A DNA stretch of 64,000 nucleotides from Escherichia phage vB_vPM_PD06. The stretch lies in sequence record NC_052653.1. One strand, written 5' to 3'. The position numbers and the translations under genes are program-made. Shown one piece after another: positions 3,645 to 40,115 of this stretch. The notes beneath the pieces were generated by a model. That model was not told where the DNA came from. It worked only from the letters and a program-made list of their open reading frames with translations, and did not search any database. Every line of letters starts with the position of its first letter. Positions within the stretch are counted from its first letter, which is position 1.

Positions 3645-4622
3645 ATGCAACTGGGTTTCCCAATTATTGATGTGGTTGTTTTAGTGGGTATTTTAGTCTT
3701 GTCGATTTGTATTGATTTCTTCGGACACAGAGAAAACAAAGAAATCTCATTTAAATCTGCAATTGGCTGGTCAATTTTCTGGATTGGGGTATCATTAGCC
3801 TACTATGGTTTTGTATACTTCCAACACGGTGCTGATTTCGCGAGCTTGTTCTTGAGTGGGTATGTGTTGGAGAAATCTCTTTCTGTAGATAACTTAGTAG
3901 TATTTGTGGCAGTATTCGCAAGTTTTGGTATTAAAAGCACACACTTGCAACACAAGATTCTACTTTGGGGTATTGCAGGTGCGATTGTCTTCCGAGGTGT
4001 GTTTGTAGCAGTAGGCACTTACTTGTTGAGTTTGGGCTGGTATGTTAATATCTTCTTCGGTGCTGTCATCCTTTTCTGTGCAGCTAAAATGGTATTCGCT
4101 GGAGATAATGACGCAGAAGTTGATTACTCTAAACACTGGGCTACTCGCATTGTTCGTAAGCTGTTCCCTGTATCTGATCAGATGGATGGTGAGAAGTTCT
4201 TCACAATCAAAAATGGTGTTCGTGTAGCAACTCCTGCATTGGTTTGTGTGTTTGTAATGGAAATGGTTGACGTAATCTTTGCAGTAGACTCTGTTCCAGC
4301 AGTAATTGCAGTGACACAAGAACCTCTGCTTGTATTTTCTTCAATGCTGTGTGCAATTTTAGGTCTACGTGCTCTGTTCTTTGTCCTTAGTGTTGCACTG
4401 AAATATTTGGTTCATCTGGAGAAAGCAGTTATCGTAGTCCTGGTATTTGTGGGTGTAAAACTGATGTATCACCCGTTTGCAGAAACTCTGCACGCAAAAG
4501 TGAGTTTCCTGCCAGCACACATTGATCCGACGATCAGTATGTATATTGTGTTAGGTACTCTGGGGCTGGGTGTTATTGCAAGTTTAATCTTCCCTGAAAA
4601 AGAAGACCAGGCTGTTGCTTAA
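3645..4622 (+). CDS. terC: TerC-family integral membrane protein
   Basis: Polytopic membrane protein of 325 aa containing SVDNLVVFVAVFASFG and a second acidic-then-hydrophobic block (EMVDVIFAVDSVPAVIAV), as in TerC-family proteins; RBS AAGAGGAG. Confidence 0.6.
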   Translation: MQLGFPIIDVVVLVGILVLSICIDFFGHRENKEISFKSAIGWSIFWIGVSLAYYGFVYFQHGADFASLFLSGYVLEKSLSVDNLVVFVAVFASFGIKSTHLQHKILLWGIAGAIVFRGVFVAVGTYLLSLGWYVNIFFGAVILFCAAKMVFAGDNDAEVDYSKHWATRIVRKLFPVSDQMDGEKFFTIKNGVRVATPALVCVFVMEMVDVIFAVDSVPAVIAVTQEPLLVFSSMLCAILGLRALFFVLSVALKYLVHLEKAVIVVLVFVGVKLMYHPFAETLHAKVSFLPAHIDPTISMYIVLGTLGLGVIASLIFPEKEDQAVA

Positions 4623-4630
4623 TTCATTAA

Positions 4631-4650
4631 GCCCCTTCGGGGGCTTTGTT
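4631..4650 (+). terminator. rho-independent terminator
   Basis: GCCCC-TTCG-GGGGC hairpin followed by TTTGTT. Confidence 0.55.
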
Positions 4651-4661
4651 GAGGTGATCTG

Positions 4662-4868
4662 ATGGTGGTTTTACGTGTTCTTTGGATTCTGTTTGAAAAT
4701 ATTTGTTTTGCTTTAGGGTTATTTTGTTTGATTTTTATCTTGACAACATACATTGATAACCATACAATTACTATCAACAGGAACGGAGAACAGATGTATT
4801 GTTTCTCTAGGGATTTTAAAAATTGTGTCGAGACTTTAAATGAGAGGGTTACAAATGAAAAACATTAA
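4662..4868 (+). CDS. hypothetical small hydrophobic protein
   Basis: ORF track; hydrophobic N-terminus; GAGGTG precedes the start. May be spurious. Confidence 0.3.
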   Translation: MVVLRVLWILFENICFALGLFCLIFILTTYIDNHTITINRNGEQMYCFSRDFKNCVETLNERVTNEKH

Positions 4869-5445
4869 ATCTTTTATTGTTGCAGTTGTTTTAGGTAGTG
4901 CATTGCTGGTAGGTTGTGATGATTCTGAAAATGTACAAAACCAACGTTACCAACAAACACCAAATCAGATGGTAGATGAACAATATGTAAATCAACCTGC
5001 ACCTCAAGTTGTTCAAGCAGCACCTGCACAACCTTCAACAGTTGTTGTGCAAGGAGGCGGTAGTGGTTCTTCTGGTGTAGGTGAATTTGCTACAGGTATG
5101 CTTCTTGGTCATATGTTGAGTGGTAATAGTGGCGGTGGTGGTTATAGAGATGGCGGTAGCAATACAACAATTATTAATAACAACGCTGCTCCTACAACTA
5201 ACAGTAAATCATATACAACACAAAAGCATAGTTTTTATGATAAACAAGGGAATACATATACAACAACTAAACAAAACACAATTAAGCAGCAAAGTGTACA
5301 AACGTATTCACGCCCATCAACAACAAAAGTGAATAGTGATTACTCTGCTCGTAAGTCTTACTCAAGCCCTATTAGCTCTTATAGTAAGTCTTCGAAAAGT
5401 TATTCTTCGTCGAAACGTAGTTTTAGTAGCTCACGTCGTCGTTAA
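4855..5445 (+). CDS. predicted lipoprotein with Ser/Tyr/Thr-rich low-complexity tail
   Basis: Start set at MKNIK (4855). Signal peptide ending in lipobox LLVGC, then Gly-rich and S/Y/T/K-rich sequence ending SSSRRR. Confidence 0.5.
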   Translation: MKNIKSFIVAVVLGSALLVGCDDSENVQNQRYQQTPNQMVDEQYVNQPAPQVVQAAPAQPSTVVVQGGGSGSSGVGEFATGMLLGHMLSGNSGGGGYRDGGSNTTIINNNAAPTTNSKSYTTQKHSFYDKQGNTYTTTKQNTIKQQSVQTYSRPSTTKVNSDYSARKSYSSPISSYSKSSKSYSSSKRSFSSSRRR

Positions 5446-5480
5446 TAATTTAATACAGATTAAATAAGAAGGAGAAACAG

Positions 5481-6332
5481 ATGAAACTAGAAGTTGGTAA
5501 AGTGTATCGCCTGGAAGGTTGGATCTTTAATCAAGAAATTCTTGAGAAGAATAAAGATGGTTTTGAGTTTGTTGGTACTACCAAAGAAAGTATGCACGAT
5601 GACGAATACTGTAAATTCGTTGGTAAAAATACAGGTCAAGAACAATTTTGCTTTAAAAGCGCAATCGGTGATTATGCTTCTGTAATGCCAACGCCAGAAA
5701 AAACTTCGAAACAATATACTGTCTTTGGTGTAAAACTTGAAGAGCTTGTAGAACACCCACGTTTTGAAGAGTTTAAGGTTGCTGCAATGTGCAAGCATTC
5801 TGAAATTAAGATACATAATTTGTTTGATTTAGAAGATCGGTTTGATATCTTTATGTATGATCGCAGGGGAAAGCATTTTGATGCAACGACTTCAAAATTT
5901 GCTGCAACAGAGGATATTAAAATCCTTGATGTTGATACCTTTCTTGAGAGTGTATCGTTTGTATTCATTCCTAAATACAAAAAACGTAGTGATCATAAAC
6001 GTGTGAAAGGAACTCCTCGTAAAAAACGTACTGTAAACAAAGCAACTTTGCACTTCACTTCTGGTGATAAATATACTCTCAAAGGGTTTGAAAGTGTTTT
6101 GTATGATGCGGGAACGGGTAATATCAAGTTTATCATTAAGGCAACCTACAAAGGTACGGTATTGCACGAAGAGGCTGTTACACTACCTGTATTCGATATC
6201 TCTCGTGTTGAGGTACGGGGTGTTAAAGAGTCCTTCGATCTGGATTTCTTAACCACTAATGCTACTGGTTATGTTAACCTGGAAGCAGATGGAGCATTTA
6301 TTACTACAAATTATTTAGATATGTTTGTTTAA
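5481..6332 (+). CDS. hypothetical protein
   Basis: ORF track; RBS AAGGAGAAAC; no motif recognised. Confidence 0.5.
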   Translation: MKLEVGKVYRLEGWIFNQEILEKNKDGFEFVGTTKESMHDDEYCKFVGKNTGQEQFCFKSAIGDYASVMPTPEKTSKQYTVFGVKLEELVEHPRFEEFKVAAMCKHSEIKIHNLFDLEDRFDIFMYDRRGKHFDATTSKFAATEDIKILDVDTFLESVSFVFIPKYKKRSDHKRVKGTPRKKRTVNKATLHFTSGDKYTLKGFESVLYDAGTGNIKFIIKATYKGTVLHEEAVTLPVFDISRVEVRGVKESFDLDFLTTNATGYVNLEADGAFITTNYLDMFV

Positions 6333-6400
6333 TACTTAATTTGTGTTATGATGGTGGTACAGAGGTATCACCATCTACTAAAGAATATGGAGGAAATTGA

Positions 6401-7504
6401 ATGTCCAGTCCTTTTATCAGTGCCGTAAAAAGCAAACCGTCTGAAACGAGTGTATTCACGGCAACAACAGAAAAAAGTAAGTCTTTGTTTGCTCCAAGTG
6501 CTATGGATGCAAGCCCTGTATATGCCCCTGCTGTTGCACGACCTGTACAAATGCTGCCTCCAATGTCTCGTGAAGAGATTGAACAGGTTGGTGCTGATGC
6601 AGGACTTACTCTTCGTAACCTTAATGCGGAAGTGCTTAAACACCAGCGTTCATCTCAGGGAGATGAAATGAGTGAGCGTTTAACCGCACTTATTAAGCAA
6701 GCAAAGCAACTTGATCCTAATTCTATTAAACAATCTAAAGGTTTAGGTAAGCTAGTTAAGAAAGTATTAGGTATGAAAGAAGATTTGTTTGGAGAATTTG
6801 ACACCATCAATAATCGTATTGAAGGTTTGGTAAAGACACTCCAAACAGACTTGAAAAAAGAAGAAGATTCTTTACGATATCTGCAACGTTTAGAAGAGGC
6901 TATTGCAAAATATGCTCTTAGCTTAAACAGGGATATAGAGCTTCTAACAGCTACTTATGAAAAAGAAGAAGTTCACCTTAATACACTACCTGAAAATGAA
7001 GTAGAAGAGCGTCAACGTACTCGTGATACTATGGATCTGCTTGAAATTCGTATTGCAGACCTGAAAGCCTTGCGTTTACTGTGTGTTCAGATGGGGCCAC
7101 GTGTACAAAGTATGCAGAAAGTATCTGCAAGTTTGATGCGATCAGCCCGTAATATTGTGAATAATGTTATTCCTGCTTACTCTGCAAACTTTTCTATGTA
7201 TATTGAAAGTCTACGCCAGAAGAAAGCAGCCGATACACAGAACAATGTACTGAATGAATTTAATGCTGCTATTGCAATGGGTAGTGATCTGGCTGCACAA
7301 AACCAAATTGAAGCTACACAACTTGCTAATCGTCAAGTATTGGATATTGAGACATTACGTCGCGATCAAGAAAACTTAGTTAAAATGTTGGAAGAAACTA
7401 ATCGGATCAACACTGAAGCCCGTGCTGCTCGTATTGATTACATTCAAGAAGTGCAATCTCTTGAAGATGGTATGATTCAAACTGTTAAACGTGGTCTACT
7501 TTAA
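6401..7504 (+). CDS. TelA-like (toxic anion resistance family) protein, tentative
   Basis: 367 aa, largely helical/coiled-coil sequence of the size expected for TelA/KlaA proteins; call rests mainly on co-location with TerC-like, TerD-like and vWA genes. Confidence 0.4.
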   Translation: MSSPFISAVKSKPSETSVFTATTEKSKSLFAPSAMDASPVYAPAVARPVQMLPPMSREEIEQVGADAGLTLRNLNAEVLKHQRSSQGDEMSERLTALIKQAKQLDPNSIKQSKGLGKLVKKVLGMKEDLFGEFDTINNRIEGLVKTLQTDLKKEEDSLRYLQRLEEAIAKYALSLNRDIELLTATYEKEEVHLNTLPENEVEERQRTRDTMDLLEIRIADLKALRLLCVQMGPRVQSMQKVSASLMRSARNIVNNVIPAYSANFSMYIESLRQKKAADTQNNVLNEFNAAIAMGSDLAAQNQIEATQLANRQVLDIETLRRDQENLVKMLEETNRINTEARAARIDYIQEVQSLEDGMIQTVKRGLL

Positions 7505-7517
7505 GGAGAAATATATT

Positions 7518-7724
7518 ATGAATATTAAAATTTACAAACTGTCTGGTTCTATGATCGCTGTCCAGTACGACAATGAAGATCGTTATGTTCTCCTCCAGGA
7601 TGCTTGGTTAGATGATCCTAATGTATTTACTGTCCTGCGAGAACTACGTTCTGTCTATACCTATTCTTCTAAAGATGGTTTTGATAGTTCAACGATGGAT
7701 TTGGTAAAAGAGGAGAATGTGTAA
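7518..7724 (+). CDS. hypothetical small protein
   Basis: AGGAG RBS before internal ATG 7518 (listed ORF 7491). Confidence 0.4.
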   Translation: MNIKIYKLSGSMIAVQYDNEDRYVLLQDAWLDDPNVFTVLRELRSVYTYSSKDGFDSSTMDLVKEENV

Positions 7725-7927
7725 TGAATAAAGATATTCACTTAACTCGTGAAGAATTACAAACCATTATGGAAGATGCTTTCATTGATGGTTGGAAACA
7801 ATGTCAAGAGTCAAATTGGTATGATGCCGAAAACTTTTTGTATTATCATATGACTGCACCTGTAGACGAGCCAACACATTCTGAAACAACTTTGGCCTTA
7901 ATTGATCTTAAGGCTGGTGTATTTTAG
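7724..7927 (+). CDS. hypothetical small protein
   Basis: ORF track; AGGAG at 7711-7715. Confidence 0.4.
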   Translation: MNKDIHLTREELQTIMEDAFIDGWKQCQESNWYDAENFLYYHMTAPVDEPTHSETTLALIDLKAGVF

Positions 7928-8011
7928 TTGTAACTATCTCTTTAAACGAGTTACAAAAGATCACCAGAGAGGCTTTCTATTTAGGCTGGAGGGCAGGTAA
8001 AGGAGAAGACA

Positions 8012-8281
8012 GTGCTTAAATTTAATATCAAAGACGATAAATCAGATGAACCTAAATGTTTTGGAGAACTTGACGCAGGTGATACATTCGTATATTATGT
8101 TGCGTATCAAGATTCTGGTTTAGATACGTTCAGAAACTTAGTGTTTATTAAAGTTAATACAAACCAAGCAATGTGTCTGAACGGTTCACAAAGAGGTCAA
8201 CTTAGCTGTATTTCATATGATACAGAAATGGTAGAAGTGGATTTAGAAGTTACTAACATTACACTCAGAAAGGAGAAATAA
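8012..8281 (+). CDS. hypothetical small protein
   Basis: GTG start with AGGAG at 8001-8005. Confidence 0.4.
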   Translation: MLKFNIKDDKSDEPKCFGELDAGDTFVYYVAYQDSGLDTFRNLVFIKVNTNQAMCLNGSQRGQLSCISYDTEMVEVDLEVTNITLRKEK

Positions 8282-8282
8282 T

Positions 8283-9077
8283 ATGTCCAATAAAATCAGT
8301 CTTAAAAAACGTCAAGAAACTCTTACTGTATCTCTGCGTAAGAAAAAGATTAACGATGTTGTTCTTCGTGTCGGTAGCGCCTTAGATATTTCGGGTAGTA
8401 TGTGTGAGCTGTATCGTGATGGCACTGTTAGTGATTTTGTAGGTAAACTGCTGCCGTTTGGTATGAAGTTTGATGACAATGCACAGATTGACATGTGGGC
8501 TTTCAATAGTTCTTCTTTTGAACTGCCTCCTGCAACGGCTGATGTGTATGATGATTATGTCGGCTCTTGCATGTCTAATGTTTGCATCAACGGTGGTACT
8601 GCTTATGCTCCAGTAATGCAAGAGATCTATGATACATACTTCGGTAGTGTACCTATGAAAAATATTACACGCGAAGTCGTTGAGTATGAAGAAGTCCCGG
8701 CTAAGGGTTTCCTTGCTAAACTAACTGGTAAAAAAGAACTTGTAGAAGTAACACGTACTATTGTAGAACAGGTTGTAGATACTGATGCACAAGTTGATCG
8801 TACTCCTGCAATGATTTTCTTCCAAACTGACGGGGAAAACATGGATACTTCAGCAGTACGTAGCTTACTGAACAAACACCGCAATACGCCTGTTTACTGG
8901 TTTATGGTTGGTGTAGGTAATGCAAACTTTAAATTCCTGAAAGACTTGGCAAAAGAGTACGATAATGTTGATTTTATCGGTATTGCAGATTTGTCCTTGT
9001 CTGATGAAGAACTTTACGATAAACTGTTATCCGAAGAGTTTGGTGAGTGGGTTAAAAAATTCGGAGCAAAAGCGTAA
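8283..9077 (+). CDS. von Willebrand factor A (vWA) domain protein, TerY/TerF-like
   Basis: MIDAS-like DISGSM (DxSxS) near the N-terminus, downstream threonine-containing and acidic blocks; N-terminal ISLKK..VSLRKK echoes the start of the TerD-like protein. Confidence 0.55.
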   Translation: MSNKISLKKRQETLTVSLRKKKINDVVLRVGSALDISGSMCELYRDGTVSDFVGKLLPFGMKFDDNAQIDMWAFNSSSFELPPATADVYDDYVGSCMSNVCINGGTAYAPVMQEIYDTYFGSVPMKNITREVVEYEEVPAKGFLAKLTGKKELVEVTRTIVEQVVDTDAQVDRTPAMIFFQTDGENMDTSAVRSLLNKHRNTPVYWFMVGVGNANFKFLKDLAKEYDNVDFIGIADLSLSDEELYDKLLSEEFGEWVKKFGAKA

Positions 9078-9084
9078 AAAACGC

Positions 9085-9112
9085 TTGACTTTGTAGAAAA
9101 GATTAGTAAAAT
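9085..9112 (+). promoter_or_regulatory. sigma70-like promoter (TTGACT, 16 nt, TAAAAT)
   Basis: -35 TTGACT at 9085-9090 and -10 TAAAAT at 9107-9112, upstream of the TerD-like gene. Confidence 0.4.
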
Positions 9113-9149
9113 AGACAACGTAAATTAACAACAAAGGAGATAATAAATT

Positions 9150-9746
9150 ATGACTCAGAAAATTTCCCTGAAAAAAGGTTCTAGCGAAAAAGTTTCTCTG
9201 AAAAAGATCGCACCAGCACTGAAACGCATTCGTCTGGAATTCTCTTGGAAATCTAACGAAAAACTGGATCTGGATGTTAGTGCTCTGATTTGCCGACACA
9301 ATGCATCTGGTCTGCCGGAACTGTTGTCTCCTCGTCACCTGGTGTGCTACGCGCAGAAATTTGATCCTGAACGTTCTACTTTTGCAGGTGAAGATGTTCG
9401 TGATGGTGTAGGACAGATGGAGCAGATTGATGTTACACTGGATAATATCTCTGCTGAAGCACAGGAAATTGCATTCGTAATTACTATTGATGACGAAACG
9501 GGTAAGAAACGCCTTGGTCACGCTACCGAAGGTTTCCTTAAAATCTTCGATGATGAACGTAATGTTGAACTGCTGGACTTTGACTTCTTGGCTCCAGAAC
9601 TTGCAGGTAACACCATTTGCCACGTTGCCTCCCTGGTGCGAGAAGATAGCGAATGGAAACTGAAAGCGTATGGTGTAGGTAAAGCTGGGCTTGACATTTA
9701 CGATGTAGTTAAAGCGTTTGGCGCTGGCGACGATTGGTTCGAGTAA
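9150..9746 (+). CDS. terD: TerD-domain protein
   Basis: N-terminal ISLKKGSSEKVSLKK, LDLDVSALIC and acidic clusters (FAGEDVRDGVGQMEQIDVTL) match the TerD/TerZ/TerE fold pattern. Codon usage is conspicuously CTG/CGT/CCG/GAA-rich compared with neighbours. Confidence 0.7.
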   Translation: MTQKISLKKGSSEKVSLKKIAPALKRIRLEFSWKSNEKLDLDVSALICRHNASGLPELLSPRHLVCYAQKFDPERSTFAGEDVRDGVGQMEQIDVTLDNISAEAQEIAFVITIDDETGKKRLGHATEGFLKIFDDERNVELLDFDFLAPELAGNTICHVASLVREDSEWKLKAYGVGKAGLDIYDVVKAFGAGDDWFE

Positions 9747-23497: not shown

Positions 23498-24229
23498 ATG
23501 AGCGAATTTGTAAACAACACTGCATTAAACTACCTGCAAACCCTCGAAAGCAATAGTGTAGATTTGATTCTTACTGACCCACCATATGCTATTTCTCGTG
23601 ACACAAATTTTCAATCTGGAGAGCCTACTGGAAAAGATACGGATAGATTCCGTGTATCTTACAACTTTGGTGACTGGGACGTTGTAGATATTCCTTACTT
23701 TAAAGAAGTATTCAAAGAAGCCTATAGGGTGCTTAGAAAAGGTGGTACTTGCATAGTTTGGTATGATATCTGGAAGATCCAGGAGCTACGTGAAATCCTT
23801 GAACCGCTTGGTTTTCGTATGTTCCGTACTATTGAATGGATTAAAACAAACCCTGTACCCATCAACAGTGGTGTTAACTACCTTAGTAACGCTAAAGAGA
23901 TGGCTATTGTTTGTGTTAAAGGTTCGAAGCCAACCTTCAATGCTTCCTACCATAAGGGTGTGTTTGAGTATCCTATCTATCAAGGAGCAGATCGTTTTCA
24001 TCCGACACAAAAACACTTGACTTTGTTTTGTGACCTTATTAATATACATACCAACGAAGGAGATGTAGTCTTAGACTTCTTCTCTGGAAGTGCAACAACA
24101 CAAGTTGCGGCACTTTTAACAGGTAGAGAATACTTAGGCTGTGAAGCCGATGTAAATATTTTTAAGCAAGCGGAGGAACGACTAAATGAGTACACTGAAC
24201 AGCAAAATCACCCTGAAAGCACTGATTAA
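23498..24229 (+). CDS. DNA methyltransferase (N6-adenine or N4-cytosine, beta class)
   Basis: DPPY catalytic motif (LILTDPPYAI) near the N-terminus and FxGxG-like AdoMet motif (DFFSGSATT) near the C-terminus; this motif order is typical of beta-class amino-methyltransferases. Confidence 0.7.
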   Translation: MSEFVNNTALNYLQTLESNSVDLILTDPPYAISRDTNFQSGEPTGKDTDRFRVSYNFGDWDVVDIPYFKEVFKEAYRVLRKGGTCIVWYDIWKIQELREILEPLGFRMFRTIEWIKTNPVPINSGVNYLSNAKEMAIVCVKGSKPTFNASYHKGVFEYPIYQGADRFHPTQKHLTLFCDLINIHTNEGDVVLDFFSGSATTQVAALLTGREYLGCEADVNIFKQAEERLNEYTEQQNHPESTD

Positions 24230-24617
24230 CAACGGTATGAATTTGGACTCTGGTCTGTCTCCAAAGATTTCTATGGCACGACTGGAACAAGTTACTGGTC
24301 TTCGTCAAGTAAGTAATGGCGGTAAGATTATTCGTGATGACGCTGTACCTTTTAATAAATTTCAGATTGAACGTCACTACGATCCTGTAACTGCAAGTCT
24401 TACTGGTGTAACTTTCTCAGGTTATCGTACTGCTGGATACCAACGTAAGGTTGTAGCTGAACGTATTAAGAGTCGCAAACAGAAAATTGCAACATTGAAG
24501 AAACTGGTAGAGAAAGATGTTTCAGAACTTCTTAACTTGTATGAAACTCTTGAAACAAAAGGTGAAAATCATAAACTCTTCTCTAAAGAAGATGTGAGCG
24601 TAATTTTCACTGATTAA
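24186..24617 (+). CDS. hypothetical protein
   Basis: ORF track; GGAGGA RBS; overlaps the methyltransferase 3' end by 44 nt. Confidence 0.4.
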   Translation: MSTLNSKITLKALINNGMNLDSGLSPKISMARLEQVTGLRQVSNGGKIIRDDAVPFNKFQIERHYDPVTASLTGVTFSGYRTAGYQRKVVAERIKSRKQKIATLKKLVEKDVSELLNLYETLETKGENHKLFSKEDVSVIFTD

Positions 24618-24629
24618 GATAAAAGAAAA

Positions 24630-24654
24630 GGAGCCAATAGGCTCCTTTTTGTTT
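24630..24654. terminator. bidirectional terminator between convergent early and late arms
   Basis: GGAGCC-AATA-GGCTCC hairpin flanked by an A-run upstream and a T-run downstream; separates the last plus-strand gene (ends 24617) from the first minus-strand gene (ends 24653). Confidence 0.55.
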
Positions 24655-26539
24655 ATGTAACATTGACTGTAAATCTGACAAGAGGTGATAACACGTCATT
24701 ATCAGCATCATAATGTGCAACATCAAACACTGCTGTACCTGCTGCAAACCCGTATTGTTCAACCTGATCTGCATAAGTAAATGTGTAAGTGTTAGTATCA
24801 AGAGTTTGTTCTGTAAGAATTGCTGCTGTGAGGACGTTTACATTTCGGAAGTAATGTTTGGTATATCCTGCTGGTTCCCAAGAAATAATTGCATCTTGGT
24901 TAGCTTGTCTTACAGCGGCTCCTCCTGTTGGAACAGCCATATCAACCCAAACAGGTGACGTTGATGTTAGGTCTGTACCGTCTGCTGCTGATTTAGCAAG
25001 TTTTGTAGCTGCTGTCTGGTATATAGAAGAAATATAATGGATACGACCATCAATACCTTCTTCATAAACATAACCACTGTAGCGTTCAGCACCATCCACC
25101 CAAGAACCAATGATAACATCGTCACGTGCTGTAGAGATGGTTCTTTGTACATTTCTGTATTTCTGCCAATCCACACCATTAACTTCTACACCATATAGAT
25201 AAGAACGTCCTAGGATCTGCCAAACAATTTTTGCTTGAGAAGCAGGAACTATTGTACGCATCTTATCAAAGATAGCTATCGTAGCATCATGGTAACGTGT
25301 AGTGTTACTGTATCTACCTGCAACAGTCGAAGATGCTGATACAGCATCATTTTCACCTTGTCCCCAAATAATTGCTTTAACCTTACTTGCATAAGGTGTG
25401 ACTTTAGTGATAAAGTTAGTTAAGCATGGCCCGTCTGCTGTGTTATCCAGATCATACCAGTAGTTGTCTGGTGTACCTGTTCCGGCTTTATCATCTGCAT
25501 ATTTATCTGCTGCTGACGATCCAGAAGCTGCATTTAACGGAAGAACTTCAGCATTTGCTAAACCACGTTGCGTAGCATATGCATTACGGGTTGTTGTGCT
25601 ACTCATTGCTGCTTTATTTGCACCAGATAATTCTGTAAAGTGTGCATTTACGTTATCTTGTCCAGCAAAGACAATAACTTCTTTAATGAATGAATCATCT
25701 GTAGCTATTGAGTTATTAAAGATAACGGCTGCTGCTTTGGTGCTCTTAACGCTAATTTTAAGGTATGTTGGAGCAAACCCATAAAGAGGAATAGAGTCAG
25801 AGATATCAAAGTAGGCGTAAGTATTCGTGGTTGTTGTAGTCCACTGGACACTGTTATTACTTAAATCTAATACTTCTACAGTATAAGTATCACCATCTAG
25901 CGGATCAGCTACATCCCAAGCAACACGAATGTCTCCATAGCTGTTTGCCACGGCTGTTACATTAGAAATAACAGGAACAGCATTAACACCTAAATAAGAA
26001 CTATCAGAGGCCACCACTGTTCCTTGATAAGTTGCAGTGCAACCTATACGGCAACTGCCATCTTTAAGAGCAGTTATTAATCCTGTAGGACTTACAGTAG
26101 CTACTTCTGGATCTGTTGTGGTGTACGTAATTACCATATCTGGAAGGTCTTTAGCACCTTCTGGACTGATTGTAGCAACCAATTGTTGAGTAGTTCCTGC
26201 ATCCATAGCAGACAGACTTTCAGTGTACACACTTAATTCTGAAGCATAGCCACCAGATTGATCAGTTAAGACAGCACCTAAATTATTTTTAGCTGTCATT
26301 ATTGCATCAAAACCGCCTTCAGCAACAAACTCCATCATACCGTTATTATCTATAACCATTTTGGTATTATCTGAAGATGAAAAAGCTATATCAAATAACG
26401 CACCATCTTCTGGTGAAACTGTGTATGTCAGTTGCTTTTTACTACCAACTATTGCAATACCAATAGAGGAAGTGGTTATAGATGTAGCTGTTACTACTGA
26501 AGCTGATGTTGTTGACATAAATAAAGGAATAGGATACAT
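24653..26539 (-). CDS. tail fibre/spike protein with Ig-like (Big_2-like) repeats and an SGNH/SASA-like esterase domain
   Basis: N-terminal Ig-like repeats (LTYTVSPEDG..., VATISPEGA...VITYTTTDPEVATVSPTGLITALKDG); central blocks FAGQDNVNAH, IIWGQGENDA and DGRIHY resemble sialate-O-acetylesterase/SGNH blocks, but Asp replaces the expected Ser in the first block. Confidence 0.5.
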   Translation of the reverse strand: MYPIPLFMSTTSASVVTATSITTSSIGIAIVGSKKQLTYTVSPEDGALFDIAFSSSDNTKMVIDNNGMMEFVAEGGFDAIMTAKNNLGAVLTDQSGGYASELSVYTESLSAMDAGTTQQLVATISPEGAKDLPDMVITYTTTDPEVATVSPTGLITALKDGSCRIGCTATYQGTVVASDSSYLGVNAVPVISNVTAVANSYGDIRVAWDVADPLDGDTYTVEVLDLSNNSVQWTTTTTNTYAYFDISDSIPLYGFAPTYLKISVKSTKAAAVIFNNSIATDDSFIKEVIVFAGQDNVNAHFTELSGANKAAMSSTTTRNAYATQRGLANAEVLPLNAASGSSAADKYADDKAGTGTPDNYWYDLDNTADGPCLTNFITKVTPYASKVKAIIWGQGENDAVSASSTVAGRYSNTTRYHDATIAIFDKMRTIVPASQAKIVWQILGRSYLYGVEVNGVDWQKYRNVQRTISTARDDVIIGSWVDGAERYSGYVYEEGIDGRIHYISSIYQTAATKLAKSAADGTDLTSTSPVWVDMAVPTGGAAVRQANQDAIISWEPAGYTKHYFRNVNVLTAAILTEQTLDTNTYTFTYADQVEQYGFAAGTAVFDVAHYDADNDVLSPLVRFTVNVT

Positions 26540-26559
26540 TTAATCTCCTTAAATAATAA

Positions 26560-26576
26560 GCCCCCGAAGGGGCTTT
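26560..26576 (-). terminator. hairpin with T-run on minus strand
   Basis: GCCCC-CGAA-GGGGC inverted repeat; on the minus strand it is followed by TTATTATTT, downstream of the collagen-like fibre gene. Confidence 0.4.
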
Positions 26577-26578
26577 GA

Positions 26579-28549
26579 TTATGTGCGTTTAGCAACAATA
26601 GCATCCACGTAATCGCCAACACCACAATATGTTAGTTGTAGTATTGTTACTCCGTTAGGATCTGTATTAATATCACTGGAACCAATTACTTTGTAAGATG
26701 GATCTAAAGTAACAGTACGACCTCCAGTGGCATCTTGGATAAGATAAACTATTGCAGAGAATGGTTTAGGTTTTGTACTATCTTCGACACCAGGCCATGC
26801 TTTTATAGTAGCGTTACCAGTAAGATTCAACACATTCATGTTATGTGTTCCTGGAGGTGTCCAGTCCCCTGTAACAGAATTGTTGGTATATGCTGTAACC
26901 TCTATAAAATTAGTTGTTACTTTTGTTGGAACTATATCTTGACCATCTACAGAATTAGTGAGTTCTTCCCATGCCCCATCTTTACGAGCATAAGTCTTAC
27001 CATCACTAGGTGCATCTGTGATACTAGGTAGTGTACCTTGAGAAGTCCAGACAGTTGCAGATGTTTTTAAGAACACCTCGCCAGTGGAGATATTAAAGGC
27101 ATAATCACCTTGTTTACCATCACTAGAGATTGGATCTGTTGTTTTAACAATCCAAGTTGCACCGTCTGTACCGTTAGTACCAGCGTCACCTTTCTCACCT
27201 TTTTCACCCTTATCACCTTTCAAACTACCCATATCTACATATTCAGCAGTTTGAGTTTGTTCATTATAGGTGTAAATGTAAAGATGACCTGTATCTTCCG
27301 TCAGATAAGCATCACCGTAATTGGCTGTAGGAGGAAGCGCACTTGCAGACGCAACGTGTCCTTTTGCAGTGATTGGAGTACCAGCTAAACGACCAACATT
27401 TGTCCACTCTGTGGCTCCTTGCAACCAGACCCAAAGTTCATTATTGATCAGATAACCATCACCCTCTTCTCCAGTTTGTGGTAGTTCAGAAGTGTTAGTC
27501 AGAATGTCAATAATGGTCAACCCTGCACCAGTTGGCCCCGTCAAGCCTTGTATACCCTGTGCACCTTGATCACCCTTGTCTCCCTTATCACCTTTTTCTC
27601 CTTTCAGAGAGGCAATATATTCGTCAATAGTACCAACGTTACCAGCATTTAACCAGACTTGATAAGCTGAATCACCAGTGTTACCCTTATCACCTTTGTC
27701 GCCTTTATCTCCTTTTGGCCCCACTATAGCACCCATATTGATCCATTCTACACCGTTTGACACGTATAGATATGTACCAACACTCCATGCTTGAGATGTG
27801 TTTCCATGAGATGCAGAAGGAAGATCTGAAACGGAATTAGCTGCGCCTTGGTAATCAAAACCATTAGCATTATTACCTGGCACACCTTGTGGCCCCTCTG
27901 GGCCAGGCTCCCCTTTATCACCTTTAATTGAAGCAAGATAATCTAGTTCTGTACCTTCATTTCCTGCTGCAAGCCATACTTCATAAGCAGATTTACCTTC
28001 TGGCCCCTGTGAGTTTACTTTTCTCCAAGCAGTACCATCCCAAGCATACATATTCTCGCCTACAATCCATGCATCCCCTGCATTGTTTCCACTTGTAGGT
28101 AATTGGTTGGTATTAGATAGTGTCCCTAATAGCTTTAATGGAGCACCTGGATCACCTTTTAAAGAAGCCAACCACTGTGTCTCAGTACCTTGGAAACCAT
28201 TGTCTACGGCAATCTGGTAAGCTGATTTACCAGCTTCTGGGATGGATTCTCTAAGATCTTCAATTTCAGCTTCAATAGCATCTAATTCTGATTCTATTTG
28301 AGCAATGTCATCTGCATTACCCACATTTTTCCAAGCTGTATCTGAAATCCCTCCAGTAGATGTAGGAGTAGAGTTAGCAGGTACAACTTTAGGTAGAGAA
28401 CCTTTCCACTGATAGTAGTTACCGTCAGCTTCAAAGAGCAATGCTTCACGAGCATCTCTTAAGGTAAAACCACTTGCAAAACTTCTACGCTTTCTATAGC
28501 GAGACTCTACCATGTCTGCAATGGCACTATTTGGACGTGTTAAAATCAC
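26579..28549 (-). CDS. tail fibre protein with collagen-like G-X-Y tracts and internal repeats
   Basis: G-X-Y tracts GPKGDKGDKGDKGNTGD, KGEKGDKGDKGDQGAQGIQGLTGPTGAG and LKGDKGEKGEKGDAGTNG; three copies of a SAY(Q/E)VWL.AGN.GT...Y(L/I)AS(L/I)KG module; four copies of an LP..G....W..G module. Confidence 0.7.
   Translation of the reverse strand: MILTRPNSAIADMVESRYRKRRSFASGFTLRDAREALLFEADGNYYQWKGSLPKVVPANSTPTSTGGISDTAWKNVGNADDIAQIESELDAIEAEIEDLRESIPEAGKSAYQIAVDNGFQGTETQWLASLKGDPGAPLKLLGTLSNTNQLPTSGNNAGDAWIVGENMYAWDGTAWRKVNSQGPEGKSAYEVWLAAGNEGTELDYLASIKGDKGEPGPEGPQGVPGNNANGFDYQGAANSVSDLPSASHGNTSQAWSVGTYLYVSNGVEWINMGAIVGPKGDKGDKGDKGNTGDSAYQVWLNAGNVGTIDEYIASLKGEKGDKGDKGDQGAQGIQGLTGPTGAGLTIIDILTNTSELPQTGEEGDGYLINNELWVWLQGATEWTNVGRLAGTPITAKGHVASASALPPTANYGDAYLTEDTGHLYIYTYNEQTQTAEYVDMGSLKGDKGEKGEKGDAGTNGTDGATWIVKTTDPISSDGKQGDYAFNISTGEVFLKTSATVWTSQGTLPSITDAPSDGKTYARKDGAWEELTNSVDGQDIVPTKVTTNFIEVTAYTNNSVTGDWTPPGTHNMNVLNLTGNATIKAWPGVEDSTKPKPFSAIVYLIQDATGGRTVTLDPSYKVIGSSDINTDPNGVTILQLTYCGVGDYVDAIVAKRT
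27163..27721 (-). repeat. collagen-like triplet-repeat coding tracts
   Basis: On the plus strand, runs of CACCTTT/CACCCTT/ATCACC units (reverse complement of GGT GAT AAA GGT) at about 27671-27721, 27521-27604 and 27163-27223. Confidence 0.6.
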
Positions 28550-28567: not shown

Positions 28568-28590
28568 AAGGGGCGAAAGCCCCTTTTAAT
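28568..28590 (-). terminator. hairpin GGGGC-GAAA-GCCCC between tail fibre genes
   Basis: Same hairpin as at 17405-17425, with A/T-rich flanks on both sides. Confidence 0.4.
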
Positions 28591-31004
28591 TAAGCATTAT
28601 TGACAGTAACAAAAGTAACAGGGTTCAGAGCTTTAATTTGTGTATTCTCTGCTGTAGGTGTTACAATTGGATCTGCAATATCTATTGTGTACAAACTATT
28701 TGTCACATATGTAGCACGTGCTATAGTTGTCACAAGATCGCCGCCATTTGCACCTGCACCTGGAATAACAATCTTAGTACCTGCTGCTTTAGCGTAGCCA
28801 TTACTAGCCCAGTTTAAAGCATTAGACTGTAGATAGGTTTGACCTGTAACAGTTGCTTTTATTTTCTCATTATCACTAAAGAAAGCACCACCTGCTGTAA
28901 CAACGTGTTTTTTACCGCTTGCACAATGAATAACTGTTCCAGTAGGGAAGTCACGCCCACCTGGGAATTCATCATAATCTGTAAAATATTGTTCAGAAAT
29001 AGTGGTTAAGACTGGCCCACGATGACCTGTACCATCAACAGCAGTTGGAACACCAAAGTTATTTCCAACCTGATCGCAACGATCCGTGTAGATTTTAGCA
29101 AAAGAAACTGTTGTTTCATCTCCGCTAAGTGCTGTACATCCTACCCACTTCATATAAGTGAATTGGCTGCGAGTATAGAAACCGCCACCACTTCCTTCTC
29201 CGCTCCCGTGTTGACCAATAAAGTCAATACTACGGCAACGAATATTATTAAAAGTAGAGCTAGATGGTAGCCCACGCCATTTAAAATCATTACAATTGAT
29301 GTTACTAACAATTGTAGAGTTTTCCCAGGCGTCTGATCCAGCCGTTGCAATCTCAATCGAAGATTCTGGAATATCCAAATTCTTAATTGTAAAGTTAATT
29401 GGTGGCCCCGCATATCTTCCACCGTTAACACCCCAGTCAATAAAGACCATGCGTGTTGAAACAGACGGATCATTAAGCAGATAACCAGTTAAACCATCAA
29501 CTTCAAAGTCTTGGCATCCGTATAATGCAACACCACAAGTAGTTAAACCTGTACCTGTTGAAACTGCTGTGTTAGGATAAACTTCGTTATCACGTATTGT
29601 GAAGTTTTTACCCATTTCAACGTGTAGACATTGACGGCAATTGTAAACTCTATTTCCAACGATACTGAAGTTACGTACATATTGTGAATCAGGAGCATCA
29701 ACACCATATGGGCCACTACCTGCTACACCAATACCAATACCCCAGTTTGCACCTTGTCCAGAAGCATCTACGTTAGCAATGTGGTTATTCTCGATGATCA
29801 AACCTTCAGTGTAGTGTCTTTGAACTACGTTAAGTTCAATAGCATCACCTTTAATATCGTGAATATAGTTGTTAGAGTAACGCCCATAGGTCATTACTTC
29901 TCCAGTACCTTGTTGCAGGATCGCATATTTACAACCATACATTTCGTTGTAACTGAAGTCCAACGTACCTTCACTTGTCATTGCTTGCATTAAAAATGCT
30001 GCTGTAGATGTTGCGTTGGAGAAGATATTACGATAGAATCGGCAATCACCACCTAACATCTTAACATAACATTTTTCAAAGCGAACGTTTTCAATCCAAC
30101 AGGACACAGTAGAAATCATTGTTCCACCGTTACCAGTGAATGTACCACCATACCAACGAATACCAGACATAGCAATTGAGCTTGTGAATCTATAATTCTT
30201 ATCTGCACGTACTTGAATGTTATTCGTGTTAGCGAAAGTAATGGTTTTTAGAATTGCTTGAGTATCATCGGTAACTCCATCACCAATTGCACCAAACTGC
30301 TCAGGCGTTACAAAGTATTGAGCTTGTAACAGGTTGCCTCCAGATGGAAGACCAACCATTGCTGCACCAGTGGTAGATGACAAAAGGTTTTTCTCTACGT
30401 AAGAAGTAGAGGCTGTTGTTTTACCAATAAAAGCAAACAATTTGTTAGGTAGACCAGTAGACGGATCTAAACCTAATGGTTCTGCCAGAATAATTTTACT
30501 ATCTTTGATAGTAAATGCTTCACCTTGAATCTGAATTACACCGTTAATGGTGACAATAGCATTATCAAAGATATAAGGAGGACTGATTTCTGTTTCATAT
30601 CCTGTAGCACCTTTAAAATACCAAGGATACACATCTGAAGCTAACTGTTCAGTTTTAAGAGCGTACAGAGTCCAGTTACTGTCCCCTACAGGTGTGCCCC
30701 GCATAGGTACAGGGTTCGCAGTAGTGGCAGATGGGGCATAATAGTACCCACTCAAGATACCGTTTTCAAAATAACGTAACTGGTTAAATACAGTTTCAGT
30801 TGATCCTGCTGACCAAGCAACAGGACTCTTAAAGAAGAAGTTATCAACAAGTGCTTTACGCAGTGTAGGTATTAAACCTGTTTCGGTTTCTACAGTTGCT
30901 GTAGCATCCCCATTAATAACATCATGCATCTGGTTAGACGAGAATATAACCAGATCAACACCTTGTTCTAGTGTCGTAGCAGGATATGTTGGAAAATTCG
31001 CCAT
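28590..31004 (-). CDS. tailspike protein with parallel beta-helix (pectate-lyase-like) fold; depolymerase candidate
   Basis: 804 aa with periodic short Gly/Asn/Val/Ile-rich repeats typical of right-handed beta-helices (NNYIHDIKGDAIELNV, IIENNHIANVDASG, FSIVGNRVYNC, FTIRDNEVYPN). Confidence 0.55.
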   Translation of the reverse strand: MANFPTYPATTLEQGVDLVIFSSNQMHDVINGDATATVETETGLIPTLRKALVDNFFFKSPVAWSAGSTETVFNQLRYFENGILSGYYYAPSATTANPVPMRGTPVGDSNWTLYALKTEQLASDVYPWYFKGATGYETEISPPYIFDNAIVTINGVIQIQGEAFTIKDSKIILAEPLGLDPSTGLPNKLFAFIGKTTASTSYVEKNLLSSTTGAAMVGLPSGGNLLQAQYFVTPEQFGAIGDGVTDDTQAILKTITFANTNNIQVRADKNYRFTSSIAMSGIRWYGGTFTGNGGTMISTVSCWIENVRFEKCYVKMLGGDCRFYRNIFSNATSTAAFLMQAMTSEGTLDFSYNEMYGCKYAILQQGTGEVMTYGRYSNNYIHDIKGDAIELNVVQRHYTEGLIIENNHIANVDASGQGANWGIGIGVAGSGPYGVDAPDSQYVRNFSIVGNRVYNCRQCLHVEMGKNFTIRDNEVYPNTAVSTGTGLTTCGVALYGCQDFEVDGLTGYLLNDPSVSTRMVFIDWGVNGGRYAGPPINFTIKNLDIPESSIEIATAGSDAWENSTIVSNINCNDFKWRGLPSSSTFNNIRCRSIDFIGQHGSGEGSGGGFYTRSQFTYMKWVGCTALSGDETTVSFAKIYTDRCDQVGNNFGVPTAVDGTGHRGPVLTTISEQYFTDYDEFPGGRDFPTGTVIHCASGKKHVVTAGGAFFSDNEKIKATVTGQTYLQSNALNWASNGYAKAAGTKIVIPGAGANGGDLVTTIARATYVTNSLYTIDIADPIVTPTAENTQIKALNPVTFVTVNNA

Positions 31005-37955: not shown

Positions 37956-40115
37956 CTATATATAAAATTTTTGTGTTGTTACTAAATCTTCTCCAGATTT
38001 AGTGGCTAATGTAATTCCACTTATAGTGGCAATCTCAACATTTACCTGTTTAAGAGTGATATCTTGCAAGTAGCAATTCAAAGGCACATTACCCATATAA
38101 AACACTTGGGATTTTGAATTAAGAACAGTTATTGAATCATGCATTATTTGTGGGTAAGCCCATATGTATTGATATAAACCAACAAACTTCTGATCATTCA
38201 ATACAATATTACCTATAATCATTTTCCACAAATATGTTCTGTAGTCTGATTCAGGATCAAAGCCATATAATGGTGCTAGAGTTGCGTCTGGAACAAACCC
38301 TGCAAGATAATGTATCTTATCATAACTAAAACCTAGTTGCTCATTAGGTATTTTGATAGCGTCGAAAGATCTTTCCATCTGACCTTCCAACAACCAGTCA
38401 TAACATTCTGAACAATAAAAGTCAAAGTTTTCTGGGATATAATAATCTTTAGGGAAGTTAACAAACTCCATCATACCGTTACCTAAAATGGATGGCACAA
38501 ATGGTAATAATGTAACTTTAGCTCCAGGATAGGCTAATTTAGTATCTGTTGCAAATTTAGCAACACGCAGTCCTAATGTTTTAGATAGGAATGCATAATA
38601 TTCATCATATGGTGTACCAGTTTTATAATTCTTAACTGTACCAACATCTTGTGCATATAATCCAGTTTCATTATTAAATGCAACTTTGGTTGCATAATCA
38701 TAAATACACGGGAGATTGGTAGCTGTGTTATACCACCACCACGGTTCACCAACCTGAATAATAACAGGAAGATCATTGGCAGCGGATATAGAAGCTATCT
38801 TATTTATTACACCTTGTAAATAATTCATCCCTTCATCAATTGAAGGAGATAAAACATAACTTGGTGGCTCATAACCTGTAGCAGCCAGATCATCATTCCA
38901 AGTATGTTGTACCCATTCTACAGGACACACTGTACTCATAAGTTCAAAACTTAAGGAGTTCATTACTGTGTAGCCCATAGCTTTTGCATTAGCGTGGAAA
39001 TTATCAAACCAGGCTTCTGTTGCTGGGTTTAAATATTCTGTTCTATTCAAAGCCCATTTATTAGATCCAGCATCCCAACTAAATTGATAATAGTGTGACA
39101 TACCATTATAATGGTTAATCATATCTCTATAACCTAATCTATAGGTGTTAGAAATAACTCGCTCTGGGGTTAGGTTATACATATCATCATAAGATGTACA
39201 CATTCTTATGGTGTGTGCTGGAACATTTAAATTACCCATATTCATCATACTATAACCCGTATCAGGTTCCAGTATGGTAAACTTAAAGGAAAGATCCTCA
39301 TTGTCTACAGGAATAATATCTTCAATTTCTTGATACCTTGTGGAGATCAAGGAGAAGAACATATTATCTATCTGTGTAGTGTCAACAACAATATCATTTT
39401 CTGGCCCAGATTTTAAATTTGAGAAATCTAATTTTATTGTTGCTGTTTTACCATCCTCTGAAACTTCTTCTGCATAAAAGTTTAGAGATACATAATGAAC
39501 TGTTTCATCCTTCAGTGTCACTGTTAAGGATGGCAATAATTTTTCTTCTTTTAATCCAGGAACACCTTGACTAAGTTCCATTTTAAACCAAAGTTTCTCT
39601 TTACTTAAGTCAGAATGTTCTTGGTAGCCTAATCCTTTGTGATCATATTTATCGTAAGTTGACCAAATAATCCCAGCAAGACCAGCCACTGTCCTATTAA
39701 CCATTCTTGCTGTGAAAGAATCACCATTAGAGATAATAGAACAACTTTCTGTTGCTTGAGAATCTATTGTCCAAAACTTAGGATCAAACATTCTAGACTT
39801 CACAACAGGCCAAGTTAGCGGGGTTGTATTCGATTGATTAGTCGTAATAACACAACGAATTTCTTCATTGATCATCATGTTATTTTGACTTATGCTAGTA
39901 ATCTCAAGAGTAAAATAAAGATCTAAAGAGTTTGCCGGACGTTCATATACATCAACCACCACAGTAGCAGAATCTGCATCAGAAGGGAACGTTACTGTTC
40001 CCTGTTTAGCTACATAATCTCTACCAGCGACCGCCGTTCCATCGACGGTCTTATAGCTGAATGAACTGGCATTTACTCTCGTATTTCGAGTTACAGTAAA
40101 AATAGCCTGTTTCAT
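37956..40115 (-). CDS. large hypothetical structural protein
   Basis: 719 aa; late module. Confidence 0.45.
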   Translation of the reverse strand: MKQAIFTVTRNTRVNASSFSYKTVDGTAVAGRDYVAKQGTVTFPSDADSATVVVDVYERPANSLDLYFTLEITSISQNNMMINEEIRCVITTNQSNTTPLTWPVVKSRMFDPKFWTIDSQATESCSIISNGDSFTARMVNRTVAGLAGIIWSTYDKYDHKGLGYQEHSDLSKEKLWFKMELSQGVPGLKEEKLLPSLTVTLKDETVHYVSLNFYAEEVSEDGKTATIKLDFSNLKSGPENDIVVDTTQIDNMFFSLISTRYQEIEDIIPVDNEDLSFKFTILEPDTGYSMMNMGNLNVPAHTIRMCTSYDDMYNLTPERVISNTYRLGYRDMINHYNGMSHYYQFSWDAGSNKWALNRTEYLNPATEAWFDNFHANAKAMGYTVMNSLSFELMSTVCPVEWVQHTWNDDLAATGYEPPSYVLSPSIDEGMNYLQGVINKIASISAANDLPVIIQVGEPWWWYNTATNLPCIYDYATKVAFNNETGLYAQDVGTVKNYKTGTPYDEYYAFLSKTLGLRVAKFATDTKLAYPGAKVTLLPFVPSILGNGMMEFVNFPKDYYIPENFDFYCSECYDWLLEGQMERSFDAIKIPNEQLGFSYDKIHYLAGFVPDATLAPLYGFDPESDYRTYLWKMIIGNIVLNDQKFVGLYQYIWAYPQIMHDSITVLNSKSQVFYMGNVPLNCYLQDITLKQVNVEIATISGITLATKSGEDLVTTQKFYI

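Follow-up and report, generated by a model that had tools for sequence, protein, structure and literature searches.

The 64,000-nt window analysed here, a stretch of the genome of Escherichia phage vB_vPM_PD06 (NC_052653.1), comes from a phi92-like myovirus (Justusliebigvirus) with a contractile tail. The leftwards-transcribed ORF with which we are concerned (Table 1) is the final gene of the tail-fibre module, located downstream of the genes for a colanidase tailspike and a collagen-like fibre, and it starts with an ATG codon just preceded by AAGGAG. The GC-rich hairpin between the fibre gene and this ribosome-binding site may attenuate read-through, and so lower expression of the ORF relative to that of the fibre. 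Comparison with 53 phage records shows 90-99% DNA identity to the gene, with ECGD1 (99.2%) the closest, and an NCBIfam search with it gave no match. The neighbouring 656-aa fibre (26579-28549, minus strand; the phi92 gp151 equivalent) has a Tail_spike_N anchor, collagen-like G-x-x repeats and a fibritin-C-like end, and the 804-aa tailspike (28590-31004, minus strand; the gp150 equivalent) is colanic-acid-degrading. We also note that four unannotated 146-kb records listed as 'Campylobacter phage' A150, A145, C3 and A110a (MG065639, MG065645, MG065656 and MG065689), with C. jejuni given as the host, match this gene of an E. coli phi92-like phage at ~97% identity; these are probably coliphage contaminants or mislabelled.

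Table 1. Features of the ORF, its flanks and the gene for its evolutionary partner, in window positions.
Feature	Position	Strand	Basis and remarks
Terminator-like hairpin, bidirectional	24625..24650	.	Separates the ORF from the convergent plus-strand ORF 24186..24617
Whole ORF, 628 aa and stop	24653..26539	-	Orthologue of the phi92 gp152/gp153 region; full-length match to PHROG 32204; 'tail protein' of Justusliebigvirus
C-terminal FN3-like sandwich, aa 536-628	24656..24934	-	Predicted model; matches the repeated C-terminal sandwiches of N4 gp65
SASA/SGNH-fold esterase-like domain, aa 275-535	24935..25717	-	Profile alignments and predicted model
H501, block V histidine (G498-R-I-H501-Y)	25037..25039	-	Alignments
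Block III, W392-G-Q-G-E-N-D398	25346..25366	-	Conforms to xQGExD
G340, block II glycine (A-S-G-S-S-A)	25520..25522	-	Aligns with the family consensus GGS; compare xGGSxx in 1ZMB, 2APJ and NanS
D295, codon GAT, nucleophile position of block I (G293-Q294-D295-N296)	25655..25657	-	Alignments; predicted model
FN3-like beta-sandwich, aa ~191-274	25718..25969	-	All-beta, pLDDT >90; aligns with the inter-domain sandwiches of N4 gp65; deleted in phi92
Two Big_2 (bacterial Ig-like) domains, aa 1-190	25970..26539	-	Pfam Big_2 (E=2e-12); PHROG tail-protein and Ig-domain families
GC-rich hairpin with TTCG loop, AAGCCCCTTCGGGGGCTT	26558..26575	-	Separates the ribosome-binding site of the ORF from the collagen-like fibre gene that precedes it
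719-aa partner protein, Calx-beta, NCTSP_N and NCTSP TIM barrel	37956..40115	-	phi92 gp142 equivalent

The original prediction described the product as a tail fibre with a central esterase-like domain in which the expected catalytic Ser is Asp. The designation as a tail fibre is not supported; unlike its two upstream neighbours, the protein gives no Tail_spike_N, collagen, fibritin or beta-helix signal in Pfam, and the predicted model instead shows Ig-like, FN3-like and SGNH domains strung together, with a relationship to the sheath subunit of coliphage N4. The Big_2 region is presumed to be an attachment or spacer arm, and model confidence is low in aa 1-104 because the alignment did not reach there. 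The esterase-like character of the central domain, on the other hand, is borne out, as it has the three-layer alpha/beta/alpha SGNH fold of the SASA-type esterases, with Asp at the nucleophile position. Its Pfam SASA (PF03629) score of 15.0 bits is below the gathering cut-off of 24.8, which the Ser-bearing homologue L007 clears with 29.1 bits. A word-indexed protein search recovered two fragments with the domain alone and 20 proteins with a profile, and an exhaustive HMMER search was used instead. With so distant a resemblance to SASA, the sialate or O-acetyl specificity that had been suggested cannot be inferred. Sialic acid was considered as a target since phi92 infects K1 and K92 hosts, and was set aside for the same reason; there is no endosialidase Pfam match in the tailspike set of the window.

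The three blocks that drew attention to the domain begin at aa 291 (FAGQDNVNAH), 390 (IIWGQGENDA) and 497 (DGRIHY), and we follow the SGNH block definitions of PMC10792757. Block I reads GQDN rather than GQSN, as originally noted, and in the predicted model a strand (residues 287-293) is followed by a helix (295-301). The corresponding residue is Ser in 1zmb, 2apj, 7kmm and NanS; of the 91 related domain copies compared, 66 have Ser, 7 a gap and 18 another residue. Every catalytic-block residue other than Ser is intact in the phi92-like lineage (G293, Q294, N296, G340, Q394, G395, E396, D398 and H501). In block V the residue three positions before the His is G498, and the Ser-bearing close relatives are alike in this (GWIHY); the situation is comparable to that in NanS, in which the role of the acid is filled by a main-chain carbonyl (PMC10792757). 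As judged from the alignments, block V has the His and lacks the acid, which appears not to be universal in the SASA subtype. The Asp of DGRIHY, put forward as the triad acid, is a poor candidate and we have rejected it; D497 is four positions before the His and is not conserved among relatives.

Among known systems, the SASA or 'putative acetylxylan esterase-like' SGNH hydrolases (PF03629; 1ZMB, 2APJ, 7KMM, and NanS 3PT5) differ from this domain in having Ser, and the domain is further set apart by its sub-threshold Pfam score and its location between FN3-like sandwiches of a phage tail protein. The SGNH esterase tailspikes of G7C (gp63.1; PDB 4QNL) and Moo19/B2 are trimeric, have an intact Ser and demonstrated activity, and unlike the domain here are GDSL-type and not of the SASA subtype. 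Asp occupies the nucleophile position in just one solved SGNH fold, the OSK domain of Oskar (PDB 5A4A; GDDFM), which is a non-enzymatic binding module (PMC10792757). OSK is unrelated in sequence and in biology (insect germ plasm, RNA binding), and has lost the whole triad, whereas the phage domain keeps the His and all of the other blocks.

The phi92-like proteins have the Asp; over aa 282-315, 37 of their records are identical and a further 15 differ at a single residue, the substitution being identified in VEcB alone (A311V). The Av-05-like proteins also have Asp, within a GGDN motif in all clusters. In a neighbor-joining tree (without bootstrap) the phi92-like and Av-05-like proteins form a single clade, sister to the Ser-bearing P0007 and P0008 and the Ala variant P0006, so that the change from Ser to Asp occurred once, in the common ancestor of the two lineages. 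Because Ser is encoded by TCN in the relatives and Asp by GAT, a path of single-nucleotide steps must go via Ala or Tyr. P0006 was entertained as an Ala intermediate in this path and discarded, since by its position in the tree, beside the Ser-bearing P0008, it lost the Ser separately. The Av-05-like orthologues (P0106 and P0107; locus L003, 7116-9059) have kept the Asp, yet both conserved Gln residues (the nucleophile-positioning Gln and that of block III) and the block II Gly are gone, and in P0106 and P0107, one of which has 82 members, the block V His is replaced by Gln (RIQY). When Ser and His are scored together across the family copies, 57 have both, 10 have neither, three have Ser only and two have His only; loss of Ser is thus accompanied by loss of His in 10 of 12 cases, and both of the 'His only' copies are the closest relatives of the query. 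The second SASA-like copy in N4 gp65 has lost the Ser, block III and the His, and loss of catalytic residues is recurrent across this phage family.

Coliphage N4 gp65 is the top solved relative by sequence (phmmer E=1.2e-24), and the structural match is also strong (Foldseek E=1e-30 over 482 columns, TM 0.60); gp65 is both the non-contractile tail sheath and a receptor-binding protein of N4 (PMC13434306). Residues ~192-613 of the ORF product match gp65 residues 619-1062, and residues 277-451 also match gp65 residues 428-603 (PDB 9lc0 and 9yf4, in which gp65 is a heterodimer with gp64). The two proteins are alike in being tail-associated, in coming from phages for which dependence on the NGR glycan has been reported, and in having damaged SASA-like sites. 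However, copy 1 of gp65 keeps the Ser (GES) and copy 2 has Gln, with Asp in neither, and the ORF product has Big_2 domains, a single complete SASA copy, and neither the NCTSP_N nor the NCTSP TIM-barrel domain by Pfam. Both of the latter are in the 719-aa protein encoded elsewhere in the window (Table 1), which has homology both to gp64 of N4 (E=6e-31) and to parts of gp65 near its N-terminus, and whose phi92 equivalent, gp142, has been identified in a 2026 preprint as the NGR-glycan-binding protein of Justusliebigvirus and Vequintavirus.

In the closest homologues that have Ser (P0008, P0012, P0013 and L007) and in the Ala variant P0006, a single chain of about 1,100-1,800 aa carries NCTSP_N (PF23844) and the NCTSP TIM barrel (PF23845), followed by the SASA-like domain; these proteins are encoded in prophages of Xanthobacter and other Alphaproteobacteria. 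Judged by its domain order, the ORF product is the distal half (FN3-SASA-FN3) of a split N4-type sheath protein, and together with the 719-aa protein it makes up the domain content of the single-chain forms. Both halves are likewise present in Av-05 (Avunavirus). Published comparisons report gp65-gp142 similarity over 59-76 aa only, together with a deacetylase-like similarity involving gp64, and the ORF is not mentioned in the literature on the gp65/gp142 similarity that we searched. As the phage has a contractile tail, it is implausible that the ORF product itself forms a six-fold sheath around a short non-contractile tail.

In N4 itself (locus L002; gp65 at 3720-7868 and gp64 at 7901-9154), residues 431-601 of gp65 match blocks I-III only of the SASA-like profile. 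The remaining C-terminal third of the profile, with the block V His (GQIHF), is matched by gp64 residues 16-79 (E=4e-4). The NCTSP TIM-barrel profile is similarly divided, with positions 4-46 in gp65 (residues 374-416) and positions 60-347 in gp64 (residues 109-407). The N4 sheath heterodimer looks to have been stitched from split domains, and the gp65 Ser (GES) and gp64 His could form an inter-subunit site.

A connection between the ORF and NGR is suggested by ancestry only. We know of no O-acetylation of E. coli NGR, and the NGR-dependent Vequintavirus phages do not have the ORF, so a role in NGR recognition is unsupported. The possibility that its product is the NGR binder was rejected on that absence, and the literature gives NGR binding to gp142.

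The gene is under strong purifying selection and is functional in most phages, with dN/dS of 0.09-0.145 overall and 0.06-0.08 in the esterase-like domain, its most constrained part. Reference phage phi92 is an exception (locus L004, 2405-4067). Its copy lacks 226 nt (gene nt 590-815), so that the first FN3-like domain is missing and the frame is shifted, and further on there is a 2-nt insertion at about nt 1002; the annotated gp152 and gp153 are products of this damage, and block I is in neither of them. The gene is a pseudogene in phi92, and it is dispensable, given this disruption. The remaining pieces still have low dN/dS, and the disruption is therefore recent. Neither gp152 nor gp153 is mentioned in the 2026 cryo-EM study of phi92. 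A departure of a different type is found in phage alia (locus L005, 5179-7998; UniProt A0A6B9X4H6) and in an IMG/VR contig, which encode a long form of 939 aa; in alia the first 628 aa are ~95% identical to the ORF product (598/628), and an extra C-terminal domain of 311 aa, with no Pfam match, is appended. The extra domain is possibly a swapped-in distal binding domain, and the long form suggests that the C-terminus of the 628-aa protein is a free, modular end.

Two explanations had been offered for the GQDN motif, an inactive domain derived from an esterase and an enzyme with a variant nucleophile, and we favor the first over the second. With a probability of about 0.58, we consider the SGNH domain to be a pseudo-esterase that no longer cleaves esters and is kept as a pocket-bearing binding module in an accessory arm. 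The ORF would then encode a non-essential accessory appendage, for which we infer a position on the tail, consisting of two Big_2 domains, an FN3-like sandwich, the SGNH/SASA-fold domain and a second FN3-like sandwich. It would derive from the splitting of the N4-type order (NCTSP_N, TIM barrel, FN3, SASA, FN3) into two genes in the phi92-like and Av-05-like phages. Ser was replaced by Asp in the common ancestor of both lineages. The domain most likely no longer hydrolyses esters, and would have been retained under strong purifying selection as a folded pocket that binds a surface glycan, or that at least shapes the arm. The Asp may have been kept as a structurally conservative small hydrogen-bonding side chain in the first turn of helix alpha-1, and not as a partner of the His. 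The further losses in the sister lineage (including the His in some clusters), the recurrent losses in the family and the non-enzymatic nature of OSK (PMC10792757) all argue for inactivity. Against this, the phi92-like lineage keeps all of the catalytic-block residues but Ser, and because loss of Ser usually brings loss of His, a His kept beside the Asp could mean that the pair is used.

A second explanation, which we regard as improbable, is that the domain is still a hydrolase. D295 and H501 would act together as a water-activating general base, or D295 as a carboxylate nucleophile, with intact oxyanion-hole blocks. As the phage adsorbs, the protein would strip acetyl groups, or another acyl or ester decoration, from a glycan on the host surface, much as G7C gp63.1 does. 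All blocks besides the nucleophile are intact in 52 phi92-like genomes, the Asp is invariant in both lineages of the clade, and the low dN/dS of the domain and the retention of a His that is commonly lost along with Ser point in the same direction, as does the fact that swapping of the nucleophile among Ser, Cys and Asp is established in the unrelated alpha/beta-hydrolase fold. On chemical grounds, however, carboxylate attack on an O-ester would give an unfavorable anhydride, and the single-step mutational routes passed through Ala or Tyr. The Av-05-like relatives retain the Asp while both Gln residues, the block II Gly and some of the His residues have decayed, so it is not as half of a catalytic pair that the Asp is conserved; moreover, there is no known SGNH-fold enzyme with an Asp nucleophile, and the lone solved Asp case is a non-enzyme (PMC10792757). 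A working D295-H501 pair, with the carboxylate as base or nucleophile, is in our estimation highly doubtful. If true, it would be the first SGNH-fold hydrolase with a carboxylate in place of serine, and its substrate would possibly be altered, to an activated ester or to a cationic de-N-acetylated sugar produced by a gp142-like partner on the NGR glycan.

A credible if rather unlikely alternative is that the domain has an architectural role only, as a stiff globular spacer within an arm built like beads on a string, and uses no ligand pocket; copy 2 in the N4 sheath may be such a spacer. Any contact with the receptor would then fall to other parts, for instance the C-terminal sandwich, the Big_2 domains or, in the long form, the added 311-aa domain. 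Copy 2 of N4 gp65 is still part of the sheath wall after the loss of all its catalytic blocks, most of the pocket-lining consensus residues are lost in the Av-05-like lineage, and the added distal domain in alia suggests that the business end may lie beyond the SASA-like domain. A mere spacer would have no need of the full set of pocket residues held by the phi92-like lineage, though, and a dN/dS as low as that of the domain, when set against the remainder of the protein, better fits a specific interaction.

The orthologues carry a variety of GenBank labels, including 'tail protein', 'lateral tail fiber protein' and 'hypothetical protein', as well as 'tail carbohydrate esterase' (KMB37 and ALITA) and 'non-contractile tail sheath' (KKE7M). 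The enzyme and sheath labels are not justified by sequence and should not be used at face value, although their existence means that the resemblance in fold was already implicitly known. Within the literature we searched, we found no earlier account of the Asp substitution or of its having arisen once, of the later decay of the site in the Av-05-like lineage, of the gene fission with respect to N4-type proteins, or of the pseudogene in phi92.

The phi92-like phages have been studied and used for their very broad host range, which is served by a 'Swiss army knife' of tail proteins, and the ORF encodes a hitherto uncharacterised one of these, whose gene is wrongly split in the reference genome of phi92. 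It is the missing half of an N4-type sheath/receptor-binding module, the other half of which, gp142, was recently named as the NGR-glycan binder, and this links the two receptor-recognition systems more deeply than does the reported similarity over 59-76 aa. The protein also offers a clean natural test of the effect of a Ser-to-Asp change where the SGNH site is intact in all other respects. Should it prove active, it would add to the chemistry known for a very large superfamily of enzymes; if it is a lectin-like pseudo-esterase, it may provide a probe for undefined NGR or other acetylated glycans.
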